From: an uncultured delta proteobacterium
GTDB taxonomy: Bacteria; Desulfobacterota; Zymogenia; Zymogenales; Zymogenaceae
Direction: 5' to 3'
Assembly: GCA_963735595.1 (NCBI GenBank)
Contig: CAVTLK010000001.1
Span: 611,591-675,590 of the forward strand
DNA length: 64,000 nucleotides
The notes below the pieces were generated by a model, which was not told the origin of the DNA, did no database searches, and was given only the letters and a program-made list of their open reading frames with translations. Position numbers and translations under genes: made by a program. Shown piece after piece: positions 10,035 to 39,684 of this stretch (its first letter is position 1; the number at the start of each line of letters is the position of its first letter).

Positions 10035-10214
10035 TTATCCCGCCGTCTGTCTTTGCGGGAACGCGGACTGCTGCTGCCGATTCTGGTATCGGCGATACTG
10101 CCTCGTTATGGATATCAGAATTTTGAACTCCCGCCACTTCCTTTCTCTGCCGTGTCTTATCAGGCTTATACTCCTATTCAAGACATAATAAGAAGGAATC
10201 ACGGCATCCGCCAT
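10035..10214 (-). CDS. Possible small hypothetical protein (59 aa)
   Basis: GAGGGGG Shine-Dalgarno 2 nt before ATG 10214; MADAVIPSYYVLNRSISLIRHGRERKWREFKILISITRQYRRYQNRQQQSAFPQRQTAG; no recognised domain. Confidence 0.25.
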   Translation of the reverse strand: MADAVIPSYYVLNRSISLIRHGRERKWREFKILISITRQYRRYQNRQQQSAFPQRQTAG

Positions 10215-10243
10215 AACCCCCTCAGCAAATTGTGCGGAACGAG

Positions 10244-10273
10244 AGGGGGGGAGGCAACTATTGCCTCCCCCCT
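10244..10273. terminator. GC-rich hairpin downstream of the GT39 gene
   Basis: AGGGGGGGAGGCAA-CTA-TTGCCTCCCCCCT. Confidence 0.6.
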
Positions 10274-33167: not shown

Positions 33168-33770
33168 AGAACCTCACCCATGCGAATCAAAGACGATGAG
33201 AGCGACGAACCGGGTTTCCCCGGAATTCCAAACCGGCCGGCCCTCGAACAGGTCGCCGGATTCACTCGGGCCGGCAACTCCACGGAAAGGAATAGCCCGT
33301 CCCCCCGGTCCCGTCGGCAGTAACGGCCCGGTTCCCTACTGCTGAAACGAACAAATAATTCCACTATATCGGTTATTTACCGTCGTCCCTGTAAAATACA
33401 AACGTTTCCCGGAGAGGTGCGATCCGTATTGGGTTATGGTGATTCCGGCCAATCCGAATGGGACGGCGAAGAGCTGCTCGATACGAAGTAAGAAGAGACG
33501 GATGGCCTGACGAGAAAAAACACTCCATCATATCGGCTAACGGAATAGTTGAATATATTAGTTATTTTACTATTCAATTCCGGTTTTGTCAAACCGCGCA
33601 GCTGAACGTGAAGTGTAATATGAAGAATTCCTGCTATAGATGATGCAATAAATAGCACGCAGGAATACGATTCAATAGTAATATTTTGTTAAATGCATCT
33701 TCCGGTAATTTCTTTTTTTTATTTTTGGGGGGCTTCGTAGCGGCCGCGCAGACCCCCGTCCTGAAGACGC

Positions 33771-33844
33771 AAAAAGGGGTTACGGCAATTGCCGTAACCC
33801 CCCGCTGTCATTGGTCGGGACGGGAGGATTTGAACCTCCGACCC
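33771..33844 (-). repeat. Copy 3 of tRNA-Pro 3' end (33812-33844) plus downstream terminator (att-like)
   Basis: TGGTCGGGACGGGAGGATTTGAACCTCCGACCC has 1 mismatch in 33 nt to tRNA-Pro; hairpin AAAAAGGGGTTACGGCAATTGCCGTAACCCC. Confidence 0.85.
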
Positions 33845-33985
33845 GATGGGAACCGGTAATGAGGAGATCGCATCTCGCAATGAAACCACTGAACGCGGGA
33901 CGAATGGAGAGATGCGAAAAGGCAACGAAGGGCCCGGTGATCTCAAGGCTCACGATCGATTCACCGGTACTCCGTGAGCAGGGGA

Positions 33986-34720
33986 CTAACGCTTGAGACT
34001 TGTCTGACTGCCTCCTCTCTCATCATCCTTGTCATTCCCCTCGACGCCCCTCTTTCCCCCGGGCGGGAAGACCATCATCTTCTGGAGGAAGTGGTAGGTT
34101 GTCTCTCCTGACGCCCTGGAGGGCATGGGCGGCAATTTGTCTCCCGTTACGGTGATTTCTTCCCCTCCGACGACGAAAATCGGTGGCAAATCCGGGAAAT
34201 AAGTCGGGGCGAGATAGACGGCGCCCTTAATAGTCAATAGGTGCGTGGTGCCTCCGTCCGGGTCGCGGGTCACGCCGAAGTCCGTCCCCCGCACTCCGAC
34301 CGTCGCATTACCCGTCTCAATAGTGAACCGAGAATCCTTGCTGACAAAGGGAACGACGATCGCCCTGATCTTGCCTTTGAGCAGCCCGAATGTGCTGGTG
34401 GATACCTTCGTGACCTCCAGCGTATTGAGCTCCTTGATCACGACCCGGCTGTTTGCCCCTATCACGATCGTGCTGCCATCGGAGAGCATAAGCTCGACCT
34501 TCCCCTTATCGCTGGTTTCGATCATGTCACCGACGCCAAGCCGTGTCCCCTTGACGAGCCGCACAAAACTCGTCTCCGCCCTGAATGTGACTTCCGGGAA
34601 CCCCCTCGTATCTACGACCACGGCGTCGGCCGGGTTCTGGCCCCGGGCGTCTACAAAACCCGCGACAATCAGTAACGTCACTACGGTACATACGGTCCCT
34701 ATGCTCCTCAACGACATCAC
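33986..34720 (-). CDS. FecR domain-containing secreted protein
   Basis: Signal peptide; GDMIETSDKGKVELMLSDGSTIVIGANS, LLKGKIRA, IETGNATVGVRGTDF. Confidence 0.85.
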   Translation of the reverse strand: MMSLRSIGTVCTVVTLLIVAGFVDARGQNPADAVVVDTRGFPEVTFRAETSFVRLVKGTRLGVGDMIETSDKGKVELMLSDGSTIVIGANSRVVIKELNTLEVTKVSTSTFGLLKGKIRAIVVPFVSKDSRFTIETGNATVGVRGTDFGVTRDPDGGTTHLLTIKGAVYLAPTYFPDLPPIFVVGGEEITVTGDKLPPMPSRASGETTYHFLQKMMVFPPGGKRGVEGNDKDDERGGSQTSLKR

Positions 34721-34759
34721 CTATCCCTCCTTTTTCGCGCAATATACCGTTCCAGTACT

Positions 34760-34788
34760 ATGATACCCCTCTCCATTGTGATAGTCAA
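34760..34788 (-). promoter_or_regulatory. Sigma70 promoter of the FecR cassette
   Basis: TTGACT-17 nt-TATCAT on the minus strand; AAGGAGGG RBS before the start. Confidence 0.6.
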
Positions 34789-34836
34789 CGTACTTCCTTC
34801 TCTCCTCTTCCCGGTTCCATTTCCGGCATAATCCAT

Positions 34837-34927
34837 AAAAAAGGGGTCACGCGAACCGCGTAACCCCTTGATATTCTTGGTCGGTACGAGAGGATTTGAA
34901 CCTCCGACCATAGGCCCCCCCGTCATG
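34837..34927 (-). repeat. Copy 2 of tRNA-Pro 3' half (34878-34927, degenerate anticodon arm) plus terminator (att-like)
   Basis: TGGTCGGTACGAGAGGATTTGAACCTCCGACC has 1 mismatch in 32 nt; the AGGGGTCACGCGAACCGCGTAACCCCT hairpin is identical to that after the intact tRNA. Confidence 0.88.
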
Positions 34928-34972
34928 CAGAGCCGGTGAGGCGAACCCCCTGATACTGCAGCGAAAATGATC

Positions 34973-36658
34973 TCAGGGTCGAGGCCCGTTTCCTTCCCAG
35001 CCCTTCAGACCATTGACGTAAACCTGCGTCGAGGCGCTGGTAACGGTGTGATCGGTGATCACGTTGACGCAGGCGGGTTTGCCCGATTGCAGGGCTCTCT
35101 CAATGGCCGGGGCGATCTGTTCGTCACTGGTGACGAACTCGCCGTAACCGCCCAGGGACTCTACCATGCGCTCGTAATGGACGATGCCCAGCTCGGTACC
35201 GCATACGCGGTCCATCCCGTAGCACATCTCCTGGGAATGCCTGGCGGAGCCCCACGCCTGGTCGTTGCAAATGACCGAGACCACCGGGATAGAGTGGCGG
35301 GCGGCGGACTCGAACTCTATGGCATTGAAACCGAAGGAGCCGTCGCCAGAGACGAGGATGACCTTCGCCTCGGGGCGTGCCAGCTTGGCGGCCATGGCGA
35401 AGGGAAGACCTATGCCCAGGCTTCCGAACTGGAGCCCGTTCGCGATGACGCCGGACTTCACGCCTGCACGCAGGGTGATAAGGCCGAAATAGACGGTGTC
35501 GCCCCCATCTATGATATAGATGGCGTCGTCCCCCGCTACGTGTCTCAGCTGATGCATGAGCCGGAAGGGATGGATAGGGTCGGTGGGTGTCTCCATCTGC
35601 TTCCGGTCGCCCTCGCTCACCGCCGTCTGGATGCCCGCGAGGGTTTCGATCCATTCGCCGCGCTTTCTTTCCTTTACCCGGCGGTTAAGCTGCCGGAGCA
35701 CCGCGCCGGCATCTCCGACCAGGGCGACGTCGGCGACCCGGTTTCTGTTCACCTCGACGGGATCGATATCCACCCGTATCACCTTGGCGTTGGCCATATA
35801 GTCCCCGTAGCTGAGGACCCAGTTGAACCGGATGCCGACGGCCAGGACCACATCTGCCATGGTCAGGGCGGCGAATGATCCCGCGAACCCTCCCGGCCAG
35901 AGTGAGAGGGGGTGCTCGTCCGGGATGGCGCCGCGTCCGCAGTTCATCAGCAGGGTGGGAATGCCGGCTTTTTCCACCAGCTTCAAAAGCTCTGCGTCGG
36001 CGTCGCTCCAGCAAATTCCGTCTCCCGCCACGAGAATCGGTTTCTTGGCGTTGTTGAGGAGTTCGGCTGCTTCCTCGATCAGGCCCTCGTCCGGTGACGC
36101 CGGGATAACGGCGCCGCGTTTAGCCGGCAACAGGATCTCGGCCCCTCCAAGCGGCGGAAAGAGGATATCCGGGGGGAGTTCCAGGTAAACGGGACCCGGC
36201 CTGCCGGACACCGCGTGCGTGAACGCCGTCGCCAGGTATTCGGGGATCCGTGCCGCCTGGTGGCATTTACCCGTCCACTTAGTGACCGGCTTGATCATAT
36301 CCACCTGGTTCACATCCTGGAGGGCTCCCCTGTCCAGCTCGCGTATGGAGCCTACGCCGCTCAGGACCACCATGGGGGCGCCCTCGTAGTAGGCGTTGGC
36401 GACCCCGGTGAGGGTGTTCGTGAACCCCGGACCGGCGGTTACCACGCATACCCCCGGCCTGCCCGTGTATATGGACCAGCCGTGGGCCATCATCGCGGCG
36501 GCCTGTTCGTGGCGCACGTCTATGACCCTGATCTTGTGCTCCAGGCAGCCGTCCAGAATGGGCATGATATGCCCGCCGGAGATAGAGAACAGGGTATCGA
36601 CCCCCTCTATTTCCTTCAGGTACCGGGCAACAACGTGTCCGCCGTGCGTGTCTCCCAT
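34973..36658 (-). CDS. Thiamine pyrophosphate-dependent enzyme (acetolactate synthase-like / 2-hydroxyacyl-CoA lyase-like)
   Basis: SISGGHI, VRHEQAAAMMA, TAGPGFTN, GDGSFGFN...NDQAWG. Confidence 0.9.
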   Translation of the reverse strand: MGDTHGGHVVARYLKEIEGVDTLFSISGGHIMPILDGCLEHKIRVIDVRHEQAAAMMAHGWSIYTGRPGVCVVTAGPGFTNTLTGVANAYYEGAPMVVLSGVGSIRELDRGALQDVNQVDMIKPVTKWTGKCHQAARIPEYLATAFTHAVSGRPGPVYLELPPDILFPPLGGAEILLPAKRGAVIPASPDEGLIEEAAELLNNAKKPILVAGDGICWSDADAELLKLVEKAGIPTLLMNCGRGAIPDEHPLSLWPGGFAGSFAALTMADVVLAVGIRFNWVLSYGDYMANAKVIRVDIDPVEVNRNRVADVALVGDAGAVLRQLNRRVKERKRGEWIETLAGIQTAVSEGDRKQMETPTDPIHPFRLMHQLRHVAGDDAIYIIDGGDTVYFGLITLRAGVKSGVIANGLQFGSLGIGLPFAMAAKLARPEAKVILVSGDGSFGFNAIEFESAARHSIPVVSVICNDQAWGSARHSQEMCYGMDRVCGTELGIVHYERMVESLGGYGEFVTSDEQIAPAIERALQSGKPACVNVITDHTVTSASTQVYVNGLKGWEGNGPRP

Positions 36659-36757
36659 GATCCCCTCCTTCCGATGCAGGATTAAGAATTGACGCGTCGA
36701 ACGGGGCGGTTCTGAGTGCAGTGAATAAATTTTACACTATTTTGACAAAAGACAAAA

Positions 36758-36790
36758 GAAAAAAGGGGTCACGCGAACCGCGTAACCCCT
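36758..36790 (-). terminator. Terminator of tRNA-Pro
   Basis: Minus strand AGGGGTTACGCG-GTT-CGCGTGACCCCT-TTTTT. Confidence 0.85.
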
Positions 36791-36798
36791 GCTATCAT

Positions 36799-36876
36799 TG
36801 GTCGGGACGAGAGGATTTGAACCTCCGACCCCATGACCCCCAGTCATGTGCGCTAACCAGTCTGCGCTACGTCCCG
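36799..36876 (-). tRNA. tRNA-Pro(GGG)
   Basis: CGGGACGTAGCGCAGACTGGTTAGCGCACATGACTGGGGGTCATGGGGTCGGAGGTTCAAATCCTCTCGTCCCGACCA; loop CT-GGG-GG. Confidence 0.96.
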
Positions 36877-36986: not shown

Positions 36987-37262
36987 TTATTCGTTGAGGG
37001 CGCGTTTCAGCACGTGGCTCGGTTTGAAAGTAACAACTCGCCGCGCGTCGATCTCGAGTTCGTCTCCGGTCTGGGGATTTCGCCCCTTACGGGGTTCCTT
37101 CTGCCGAACCACAAAGTTGCCGAACCCGGATATCTTGACCTTCTCCCCGCTTTCGAGCGTTTCCTTTATGACCTCGAACAGCTCATCGATGATGACGGCG
37201 GACTCCTTCTTTGACAAGCCGAGATTCTTATAAATGGAATTTATTAAGTCGGTCTTCGTCAT
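36987..37262 (-). CDS. ihfA: Integration host factor alpha
   Basis: MTKTDLI...VKISGFGNF.VRQKEPRKGRNPQTG...ARRVVTFKPS; lies directly after pheT. Confidence 0.93.
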   Translation of the reverse strand: MTKTDLINSIYKNLGLSKKESAVIIDELFEVIKETLESGEKVKISGFGNFVVRQKEPRKGRNPQTGDELEIDARRVVTFKPSHVLKRALNE

Positions 37263-37280
37263 AACGTCCCCCCTAAAAAG

Positions 37281-39684
37281 TTATCTGATCTGCACATCGA
37301 GTTTCTTCTTTAAGACATCCAGTACCCTCCCGTGAACCGCGTTTACCTCGTCGTCGGTAAGCGTCCTATCTTCCGATTGGTATCTTACCGTCAGGGCGAG
37401 GCTCTTCTTATCCTCCTGAATCTGCTTGCCCTGGTAGACATCGAAAATGGTAACGTCATTGATGAGGCTGTCGCCCGCGCCACAGATCGCCTCGATAATC
37501 TTCTTTGACGTGAGGCTTCCGCCCACGACCATCGATATATCGCGCAGAACCGATGGAAAACGGGAAACCGATCGGAACGTGAAATCCCGTGCCGCACAGC
37601 CCACCAGGGCAGATAGATCGGCTTCGAGAACATACGCGTCTCGGCCGAGGTCAAAGTTCTTCATAACCTTCGGGTCGATCCTGCCCATGTATCCGACGGG
37701 TACCTTCCCGCTCATAATGGCGCACGACTGCTCCGCGTCAAGATACGGATAGTCGTTCGTATCAGTGTATTCTATTTCCAGGAAGCCCAGCTTGTCAACC
37801 ACCGTCTCCCAGATGCCCTTGATATCGAAGAAATCGACGTCACCCGCCGGCATGCCCCATTGTCTCGGATATCGTTTCCCGGATATCAGGGCGCACACAT
37901 GTTCGTTCTCGGTGGGCAGGCCCTTTTTGTTCGGTCTGAAAACCCGCGCCGTCTCAAAGATCCGTACGTCATAGTTCAGGTAGTTGATGTTCGTGACGCA
38001 GGTCTTGATTATCGACGGTATCAAAGTCGTACGCATCGACGCCATGTCTTCGTTCATCGGGTTGGCCAGTTTAATGGCGGTACGGCGCGCGTCGCCCGCC
38101 GGGAGTTCCAGCTTCTCCAGCCAGTCGATCCCGATAAAGCTGTAGGTGATTACCTCGCTAAATCCTTCAGACAGCATGACCTCCGACACCCGCTGGGTGA
38201 GCGTGCGGATCGGCGAGCGTTCTGAATAGTCCATTCCGATTTCGGGGAGCGTCTCGGGAATCCGGTCAAAGCCCTTGAGCCGGGCGACCTCTTCGATAAG
38301 GTCTATCTCTCGCTCGAGGTCCATCCGGAACGGCGGCGGCAGGGCAGTTACCGAGTCGTCCGTCTCGGCCTGCACCTCGAGCTGGAGCCTCTTGAGGAAT
38401 TCCTTTGACTCCGTGCGTCGTAATGTCAAACCCCATGATTTTCCTGGTTCGGGGCGTTCGGATGGTCACCGGTTTGGGCAGCGGTATCGGCCCCAGGACA
38501 TCGATCATACCCCGTGCGATCACCCCGCCGGCCAGTTCGCGGACAAGCTCCGCCGCGCGGTTTGCCGCATCCACCAGGCCCACCGGGTCGACCCCCCGCT
38601 CGAAGCGGAAGGCCGCCTCGCTGGGCAGCCCCAGCTTCTTGGCGGTGCGTCTGATTGACGGTGGATGGAAATACGCGGCCTCCAGGAGTACGTCCGTGGT
38701 GTCCTCCTGAATTTCCGAGTTCGCGCCGCCCATGACGCCGGCTATGCCCACCGGCCTTTGTCCGTCGCAGATCATCAGCACGTCCTCGTTGAGCACCCGC
38801 TCGACGGCGTCCAGGGTATAGAAGGTTTCACCTTTGGCGGCACGCTTTACCACGATCCTGTGTCCCTCAAGGAGGCTGTAATCGAAGGCGTGCATGGGTT
38901 GCCCGTATTCGAGCATGACGTAGTTGGTGATATCAACGACGTTGCTGATGTCGCGCAGGTCAAGCCTCTTCAGGCGAAGGCGCATCCAGAAGGGGGACTT
39001 TCCTATCGTGATCTTCTGGACGACCCGGGCGGTATAGCGGGGGCAGAGGTCCGCATCGATAACGTCTACCGACGCGAGGGTTTTGATATCCGGCCCTTCC
39101 TCGACAATCGATATTTTCTTTTCCTTGAGCGGGACACTCGTGAGCGCCGATATCTCCCGCGCAAGACCGATGATAGAGAGGCAGTCTGCCCGATTAGGAG
39201 TCACGCCGACGTCCAGCAGCCAATCCGTGAGGTCCATCGCCTCCGTTATCGGCCTTCCGGTCGCCGCGGTCGGCTCGAGCTCCATAATCCCCGAGTGATC
39301 GGCCGTAAGCGCCATTTCGTCCTCGGCCAGCAGCACGCCGACCGACTCGACGCCGCCGAACGCGCGCTTGCCGACCTCGATACCGCCCGGAAGGCGAACG
39401 CCGGGCAGCGCGAGAGGGGCCTTAATGCCGGCCCGTATATTGGGGGCCGACGAGACGATGGTTACCGGGGATTGCCCGGTAGTAACCTGACAAACCGTGA
39501 GCCCCTCTGTCGTGGGATGGGGCCCGGCCTCGATTACTTCACCAACGAGGATCTTTTCCAATCCTTCGCCGAGCCGCTGGACAGCCTCGACCTCAAAGCC
39601 GGACATGGTCATGAGATCGGCGAGCTTATGGACCTCAAGATCAATATCGACAAAATCAGACAGCCACTGTATGGTCGCTTTCAT
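37281..39684 (-). CDS. pheT: Phenylalanine--tRNA ligase beta subunit; apparent frameshift near 38415
   Basis: TPNRADCLS, RFERGVD, REIDLIEEVARL.G, SLALTVRYQSEDRTLTD. Confidence 0.95.

Follow-up and report, generated by a model that had tools for sequence, protein, structure and literature searches.

Integrase-less cassettes behind a tRNA-Pro gene: probable relics of successive insertions in a Candidatus Zymogenaceae-like lineage

Introduction

How does one tRNA gene come to be followed by a row of small genes, each of which ends in a copy of the 3′ half of that tRNA and a terminator? This question is raised by an array on the minus strand of a 64 kb stretch of contig CAVTLK010000001.1 (positions 611,591 to 675,590) from an uncultured delta proteobacterium; the whole stretch is called the window below. 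Behind tRNA-Pro(GGG) lie a gene for a three-domain thiamine-pyrophosphate (TPP) enzyme and a gene for a FecR-domain protein, each followed by a displaced piece of the tRNA. A first-pass annotation, made from the sequence alone, had taken them for an integron-like tandem array of minimal cassettes that are inserted or excised in trans at tRNA-Pro.

Our comparison with related genomes leads to a different answer. It is likely that the array consists of integrase-less relics of successive insertions into tRNA-Pro, on which recombination between repeats acted afterwards. Rather than an integron, it is a natural example of a tRNA gene gaining and shedding small accessory genes in an uncultured Candidatus Zymogenaceae-like lineage, where near-identical strains provide a three-step nested series and a relative carries a cognate integrase element at the same site.

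Anatomy of the repeats

On the minus strand the order is pheT, an ihfA-like gene of the HU family, tRNA-Pro(GGG), and then the array of repeats and cargo genes (Table 1). A 32-nt stretch from the T arm to the CCA end is present there in three copies, with starts 1921 and 1066 nt apart; by chance, none would be expected (100 dinucleotide shuffles). With an nhmmer profile covering all copies of the window and of its relatives (loci with labels such as L001), the whole repeat extends over about 95 nt: it begins in the anticodon arm, continues past CCA and a 9-nt spacer, and closes with a GC-rich hairpin followed by a T-run. The terminator of copy 2 is identical at 32/32 positions to the one behind the tRNA, while copy 3 ends in a perfectly palindromic variant, GGGGTTACGGCAATTGCCGTAACCCC. 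Thus tRNA finders, repeat search and Pfam returned the order given by the first-pass annotation: tRNA-Pro with terminator, TPP gene, copy with identical terminator, FecR gene, copy with variant terminator.

Table 1. Positions of the tRNA-Pro array and of its neighbours in the window
Feature	Position	Strand	Remarks
pheT	37281-39684	-	Pfam; anchor gene upstream of tRNA; read as two frames in the window
ihfA-like HU/IHF gene	36987-37262	-	Pfam; anchor gene upstream of tRNA
Intact tRNA-Pro(GGG), integration target (attB/attL)	36799-36876	-	ARAGORN; Rfam tRNA 62 bits
Repeat copy 1	36755-36848	-	nhmmer; T arm to CCA 36799-36830 (0 mismatches); 9-nt spacer after CCA; hairpin 36764-36790; T-run to 36759
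Cargo gene 1, three-domain TPP enzyme, 561 aa	34973-36658	-	Pfam; GGAGG ribosome-binding site
Repeat copy 2	34833-34927	-	degenerate anticodon arm; T arm to CCA 34878-34909 (1 mismatch; 31/32 vs tRNA); hairpin 34841-34869
Sigma-70-like motif TTGACT-17-TATCAT	34760-34788	-	upstream of FecR-domain gene; 10/12 positions match
Cargo gene 2, FecR-domain protein	33986-34720	-	Pfam; hydrophobic N-terminus; weak NCBIfam likeness to LipL45/Lsa33
Repeat copy 3	33769-33860	-	more degenerate anticodon arm; T arm to CCA 33812-33843 (1 mismatch; 31/32); variant terminator 33776-33801
Flank beyond array, 49% GC spacer	33168-33768	-	upstream of the 1792-aa gene
Near-consensus promoter TTGACA-17-TAAAAT	33564-33592	-	within the 49% GC spacer; 11/12 positions
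Multi-PAS/histidine-kinase/receiver gene, 1792 aa	27789-33167	-	Pfam

Could these copies be decayed tandem duplicates of tRNA-Pro with unrelated genes between them, or an artefact of assembly? Three similar tRNA-derived segments in the same orientation would agree with duplication. However, the displaced copies begin at the anticodon arm, as attachment (att) scars do, and in them ARAGORN, Rfam and folding found neither a 5′ half (acceptor and D arm) nor a cloverleaf; because the 5′ half is missing, both ARAGORN and Rfam recognise a single tRNA-Pro in the array. The same structure recurs in independent assemblies from different samples (L003/L134, L135, L139 and a Logan contig), so the array is no assembly artefact, a doubt that the first-pass annotation had left standing. 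Duplication or artefact is therefore scarcely credible to us. The two displaced 3′ fragments lie on the tRNA's own strand downstream of the intact gene, a feature of the Islander principle, and they are best read as attL/attR-type scars of site-specific integration at tRNA-Pro, as had been proposed.

The Logan contig just mentioned (ERR12035938, 1950 nt, short reads) encodes exactly the TPP protein of the window. Its length and the position of the gene fit ends inside the 32-nt identical terminator repeats, and it shows how the locus fragments assemblies.

The locus in relatives and in near-identical strains

A search with PheT gave four metagenome-assembled genomes (MAGs; L001-L004), one named Candidatus Zymogenaceae and three "uncultured delta proteobacterium". 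In all four, ihfA is followed by tRNA-Pro(GGG); behind this tRNA stand displaced 3′ copies, between one and three of them, whose distances vary and whose cargo differs. The tRNA of L001 precedes a 7.4 kb element and one fragment. In L002 it is followed by an alpha/beta hydrolase (ABH) gene, a fragment, an inverted FecR-like gene and a decayed fragment, and in L003 by genes for nucleoside hydrolase, PfkB kinase and ADP-ribosylglycohydrolase (NH-PfkB-ARH), a fragment, TPP, a fragment, FecR and a fragment. L004 has ABH, a fragment, a GFO/IDH/MocA oxidoreductase (GFO) gene together with ARH, and a fragment. Synteny of the pheT-ihfA anchor region (36987-39684 in the window) is kept in all relatives. 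Their cargo genes lie in either orientation, with one to three genes per module, and many face away from the fragment. A metagenome scan with PheT added one short close relative only. An exact 32-mer scan of GTDB genomes was rejected as a locus finder: it is unspecific, the tRNA-Pro 3′ end being common to many phyla among the matches listed.

The strain-level set comprised the contigs that encode exactly the IhfA protein of the window; three such contigs came from JGI sample 3300075153. These contigs form a nested series. The shortest version, in L135 and L139, is tRNA, FecR, a copy-3-type fragment and the window's flank; the window itself has tRNA, TPP, FecR and flank; L003/L134 and one further contig have tRNA, NH-PfkB-ARH, TPP, FecR and again the window's flank. 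Window 36843-31597 is collinear with L003 15004-20257 at 88% identity, but L003 has an additional 3444 bp, and this insert is bounded by a duplication of 95 nt that reaches from the anticodon loop to the terminator. L003, L135 and L139 also keep the flank after the array in collinear order with about 90% identity, and all three possess orthologues of copy 3.

Two contigs of the same set have other contents: in L136 the tRNA is followed by an FMN reductase gene and a fragment beginning in the T-loop, and in L133 by a 3070-aa GH94-type gene. About 80 nt after the last L004 fragment are homologous to the sequence directly after the L133 tRNA terminator (z = 16), and by this match L133 looks like an unoccupied, empty version of the L004 site. 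Neither the window nor L004 contains a homologue of the giant GH94 gene, and only the flank of about 80 nt is common to L133 and L004.

The locus is hypervariable, with empty sites for at least the TPP and NH modules. The first-pass annotation had proposed to compare the ihfA-tRNA-Pro locus in relatives for variable cassette content and had named fixed content in all of them as the opposite outcome; variation is what we found.

The FecR orthologue of L003 (17146-17862) aligns to the window protein in two frames and is a frameshifted pseudogene or carries an assembly indel.

An integrase element at the same site

The first-pass annotation had stated that no recombinase is present, and none was detected in the window: Pfam finds no recombinase domain in the two cargo proteins, and the L001-type (nearest cognate) integrase has zero tblastn matches across the whole 64 kb. 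A cognate tyrosine integrase is found at the same site in L001, a Zymogenaceae MAG. The 7.4 kb element of this relative encodes an integrase of 386-417 aa, which is convergent on the tRNA, as well as zinc-ribbon proteins and an HTH_36 protein that resembles replication initiators, and its far end bears a tRNA copy that is exact from the anticodon-loop base C32 to CCA. By sequence, the two ends are a textbook attL/attR pair of the anticodon-loop class.

Two lines of evidence support the view that the integrase-less cassettes descend from such elements. Firstly, fragments f1 of L001, f1 of L003 and f2 of L004 all match the tRNA from C32 (CTGGGGGTCATGG...) to CCA, and two of these three sharp junctions (L003 f1 and L004 f2) bound cassettes that have no integrase. 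Secondly, the left end of the L003 NH cassette has 21/25 nt in common with the L001 element just beyond the terminator (z = 6.3, 0/300 shuffles). A by-eye likeness between the P arm of L001 and the right end of the FecR cassette of the window was rejected as insignificant against shuffles.

The homologues of the L001 integrase make up a small family. One lies at tRNA-Arg(TCT) and marks the end of a satellite-like element that also encodes TerL, an AAA_25 protein and a DnaG-type primase (L163 1-11334); another, in the MAG of L001 itself, lies at tRNA-Ala(GGC) in a plasmid-like element with TubZ, HerA and a kinase (L167 1-11275). Both have the convergent geometry. The third sits within a prophage (L165); the search there gave no tRNA gene, just a weak tRNA-like match nearby. 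A close-relative search in GTDB representative genomes returned only the L001 integrase itself. In IMG/VR, 9/11 contigs containing the 32-mer carry just the 3′ fragment, and one of these fragment-only contigs is a Mu-F-type phage contig end with the same terminator design; the combined fragment-plus-terminator pattern had no match in IMG/VR, and a search of a phage collection matched tRNA-Pro genes only. A candidate arm motif, TGACTTGAACCAG...TTGAA, gave matches in viral contigs.

The terminator

The first-pass annotation regarded duplication of the terminator together with the att core as unusual. It is no peculiarity of these cassettes: a terminator hairpin is present in every repeat at the locus in the family, the two ends of the L001 element and an end of a prophage among them, and a tRNA-Ala of the same family has the same terminator design. 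Among 21 repeats, 97% of the hairpin positions are paired and four pairs have compensatory changes, compared with 46-56% pairing in slid controls. The hairpin is GC-rich, is followed by a T-run and keeps its structure across copies, as is characteristic of rho-independent terminators. The simplest reading of these sequences, from which we also infer the function, is that the hairpin would be the tRNA terminator of the host.

What would such a copy do in an element? Elements that target a tRNA gene may carry a homologous terminator so that the rebuilt tRNA stays terminated, with no read-through into the convergent integrase. A 3′ module supplied by an element can thus include a complete tRNA terminator that is later left behind cargo genes. 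In the window both cargo genes are co-directional with the tRNA and each displaced terminator sits at the end of a cargo gene; these hairpins, still intact, presumably end the cargo transcripts. Since many cargo genes of relatives point the other way, "gene plus terminator" is no designed unit.

Both window fragments lie in the 3′ untranslated region of a co-directional gene, and these regions fold more stably than shuffles (z = -3.0 and -3.9). Have the tRNA fragments been co-opted as functional RNA, for example as tRNA-like 3′ structures that process or stabilise the cargo mRNAs? We consider this very unlikely. The stability comes mainly from the terminator hairpin; folding of these regions gave no acceptor stem, no cloverleaf and no tRNA-like shape; and the tRNA part decays between orthologues, as is described below, while the orientation of the relatives' cargo speaks against it too.

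In L136 (5629-5657), the displaced tRNA-Pro copy after the FMN-reductase cassette begins only in the T-loop and is not followed by a terminator. This suggests that a second integrase class with a different crossover position also uses tRNA-Pro.

Age and decay of the cassettes

If the cassettes were inserted by elements of this kind, then we can ask: How long have they been in place? Synonymous divergence (dS) of the TPP gene between the window and L003 is 0.19, against 0.29 for pheT and 0.31 for ihfA. For FecR between the window and L135 it is 0.15 against 0.18 for pheT, and for ABH between L002 and L004 it is 1.05 against 1.14 for ihfA. The ratio of nonsynonymous to synonymous divergence (dN/dS) indicates purifying selection on TPP (0.10, window vs L003) and weaker constraint on FecR (0.47, window vs L135). 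Because cargo dS is like that of the housekeeping neighbours, TPP and FecR look like vertically inherited, long-term residents, and the cassettes of the window are probably not mobile now. Horizontal transfer of ABH, which we had considered from its 90% amino acid identity between L002 and L004 against 70% for PheT, was dropped: the dS values fit vertical descent.

The displaced repeats have also changed. Their tRNA-derived parts differ at 4-9/32 positions between orthologues, while intact tRNAs are identical at 32/32, and the anticodon arm agrees with that of the tRNA at 13/18 positions in copy 2 and at 11/18 in copy 3. Judged from these alignments, copies 2 and 3 are decaying scars and not maintained sites, and their degenerate core arms argue against att sites that still function.

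These data bear on the possibility closest to the first-pass annotation, namely that the cassettes are active and minimal, integron-like or functional cis-mobilizable elements (CIMEs), that they never were autonomous or can still move, and that they are moved in trans by a tRNA-Pro-specific tyrosine integrase, whose gene would lie elsewhere in the genome or on a visiting element, with the tRNA 3′ half, perhaps also the hairpin, as the site. Most modules are compact, have no integrase and show no mobility debris; the sharp C32 junctions of two integrase-less cassettes and the terminator-proximal arm sequence that the NH cassette keeps from the integrase element would fit as well, and several identical-IhfA contigs of one sample differ or break at the locus. 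However, TPP, FecR and ABH diverged along with their flanks, the core arms are degenerate, gene number and orientation vary, the cassettes have no common P-arm motif, and the window yielded no integrase.

One further gene bears on movement. The dS of ARH is 0.40 against 1.4-1.8 for its flanks, and ARH does look horizontally transferred by these values. It fails as evidence that whole cassettes move, since its homology ends at the borders of the coding sequence and not at those of the repeats. Altogether we find active cassettes rather unlikely. A particular form of this idea makes the module of about 95 nt a cassette-borne recombination site, for which visiting L001-like elements supply the integrase in trans, so that units of one to three genes move in a way that resembles integrons in its working and is unrelated to them; this form we hold to be improbable. 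If it were true that cassettes can be mobilised in trans, they would offer a simple model of integrase-less gene exchange.

Between three species that have about 70% identity in their housekeeping genes, ARH is 87-89% identical in nucleotide sequence (L003 13809-14891, L004 14526-15608, L162 9932-10995). Two of these copies lie in different tRNA-Pro cassettes; the third stands beside tRNA-Val(CAC), on a different contig of the MAG that contains L002.

Recombination between the repeats

By pheT dS, L135 is nearer to the window than L003 is. As the window and L003 have TPP and L135 lacks it, its loss in the L135 lineage is the most parsimonious explanation. In L135 a tRNA-type spacer is joined to a copy-2-type terminator and flank. 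The crossover is thereby located within the 32-nt identical terminator, which implies homologous recombination between repeats.

Can homologous recombination alone explain the whole array? The module of about 95 nt would then serve as portable homology: cassettes would be gained from the DNA of relatives by Campbell-type or double crossovers and lost by deletion between repeats, with no site-specific recombinase. The position of the L135 crossover favours this view, as do the mosaic repeats, among which copy 2 of the window appears overwritten, and a short-read assembly whose breaks coincide with the 32-nt terminator repeats. Yet the first origin of the repeats is left unexplained, and neither the fresh anticodon-loop junctions nor the arm likeness of the NH cassette and the L001 element is accounted for. 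Homologous recombination probably accounts for the losses and the reshuffling and not for the origin of the array; as the sole process it is unlikely.

Proposed history of the array

Successive insertion followed by loss of mobility genes and by repeat recombination is the history that we prefer. The tRNA-Pro(GGG) next to ihfA would be a long-used attachment site of tyrosine integrases in Candidatus Zymogenaceae and relatives. An incoming element would recombine in the anticodon-loop region and bring its own tRNA 3′ half with a host-type terminator, thereby rebuilding a terminated tRNA gene, while the older 3′ half and terminator would be displaced to the far end of the insert. Modules would thus be stacked with the newest beside the tRNA, and copy 3 would be the 3′ half that the chromosome had at first. 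Both units, TPP and FecR, are probably what is left of two insertions after loss of the integrase and mobility genes that we suppose they once carried, that is, CIME-like islets or tycheposon-like remnants. The direct repeats of about 95 nt would then have been substrates for homologous recombination and gene conversion, which could have deleted cassettes (TPP in L135 and L139) and produced mosaic repeats. The direction of each gain and loss in this scheme is what we infer.

Several observations weigh against this history. An integrase is present in only one of about eight cargo modules at the locus, and the integrase-less cassettes yielded neither an integrase pseudogene nor other debris of mobility genes; such compactness without debris is not explained by descent from integrase elements. 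The fragment-side cassette ends (P arms) have no significant common motif. Copy 2 of the window matches the intact tRNA at 31/32 positions and its L003 orthologue at 24/32, and the spacer type "agaatatca" is common to fragments that are not orthologous. The crossover between L135 and the window appears in the terminator, not in the anticodon loop.

The repeat sequences thus misfit a simple insertion history and need extra steps of gene conversion or recombination. Their mosaic nature suggests gene conversion.

Comparison with known systems

The array is real and variable, but it belongs to an already known kind of genomic island and adds an example, not a new principle. Tandem islands at tRNA or tmRNA genes include integrase-less members, the CIMEs, for example among ICESt1-related elements (PMC5704250), and 15 ssrA islands of Dehalococcoides are without integration modules (PMC3146451). 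Here, too, an intact target stands at one end, direct repeats of its 3′ end lie between the stacked islands, an integration module is present in some islands and absent from many, and content varies between strains. As in CIMEs, attL/attR-type repeats flank units without integration or transfer genes. Unlike the islands of both systems, the window units measure only 1.07 and 1.92 kb and have one gene each. Two further differences from Dehalococcoides are the length of the repeat (about 95 nt with a complete terminator, against 20 bp) and the enzyme (a tyrosine integrase in L001, against a serine recombinase).

Islands of Prochlorococcus seeded by tycheposons arise by successive integrations and contain scattered partial tRNAs (10.1101/2020.12.28.424599). 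They resemble our locus as tRNA-adjacent hypervariable islands with older elements pushed inward, partial tRNAs, degenerate remnants and cargo of metabolic genes. Their hosts belong to another lineage, and we saw no integrase fragments in the remnants here.

The Islander catalogue requires an integrase for each island (PMC4383910). An integrase lies inside the island in L001 and none was detected in that of the window, so an array such as that of the window is filtered out, and island finders of this design miss such arrays.

The regenerated tRNA, the 3′ fragment downstream in the same orientation and the identity that starts in the anticodon loop at fresh junctions resemble integration of class A. 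In both class A and Islander cases the difference is that similarity here runs past CCA through spacer and terminator. Class A integration, in the anticodon loop, was reportedly described by Williams in 2002.

Integrons share with the array small units stacked at one site and a structured, sequence-variable hairpin that ends each unit. In contrast to integrons, the array has no intI, attI, attC or Pc promoter and lies between ihfA/tRNA-Pro and a PAS histidine kinase gene. Its units have their own promoter-like motifs, and in relatives the orientation and number of cargo genes vary. The hairpin is a tRNA terminator with a T-run, found also behind the unrelated tRNA-Ala, and not an attC site. 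On these points the integron-like reading of the first-pass annotation is not supported.

Cargo genes, promoters and minor observations

The TPP enzyme is similar to acetolactate synthase and 2-hydroxyacyl-CoA lyase, with every NCBIfam match under the family cut-off; the GC content of its gene is 63%, whereas the window averages 55%. For the window FecR protein, a look-up by exact sequence gave no match. Both cassettes are compact, with 46-125 nt of non-coding sequence at each end.

The first-pass annotation had given each cassette a promoter-like motif. The motif TTGACT-17-TATCAT is indeed there, but promoter-like matches in the region are no commoner than in shuffles, and the other motif, TG-TAAAAT, is without the usual spacer base.

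In a more distant "delta proteobacterium" MAG (L019 4967-6630), a tRNA-Pro with a different anticodon stem has a 3′ fragment and terminator about 1.5 kb further on; the interval contains a UPF0175 (antitoxin-like) gene and no integrase.

Elsewhere in the window, positions 10187-10246 of the minus strand match weakly the part of the repeat formed by acceptor 3′ side, spacer and terminator (nhmmer E = 0.0012, about 67% identity to copy 3). The match lies after a 556-aa gene near tRNA-Glu and could be a fourth, very decayed relic or merely a similar terminator.

The window pheT changes frame near 38404-38441, so that residues 1-427 are read in one frame and 415-800 in another. The gene is intact (800 aa) in L001, L004, L133, L135 and L136 and is in three pieces in L003. 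The split in the window probably reflects an indel introduced in long-read assembly, rather than decay of this essential gene into a pseudogene.

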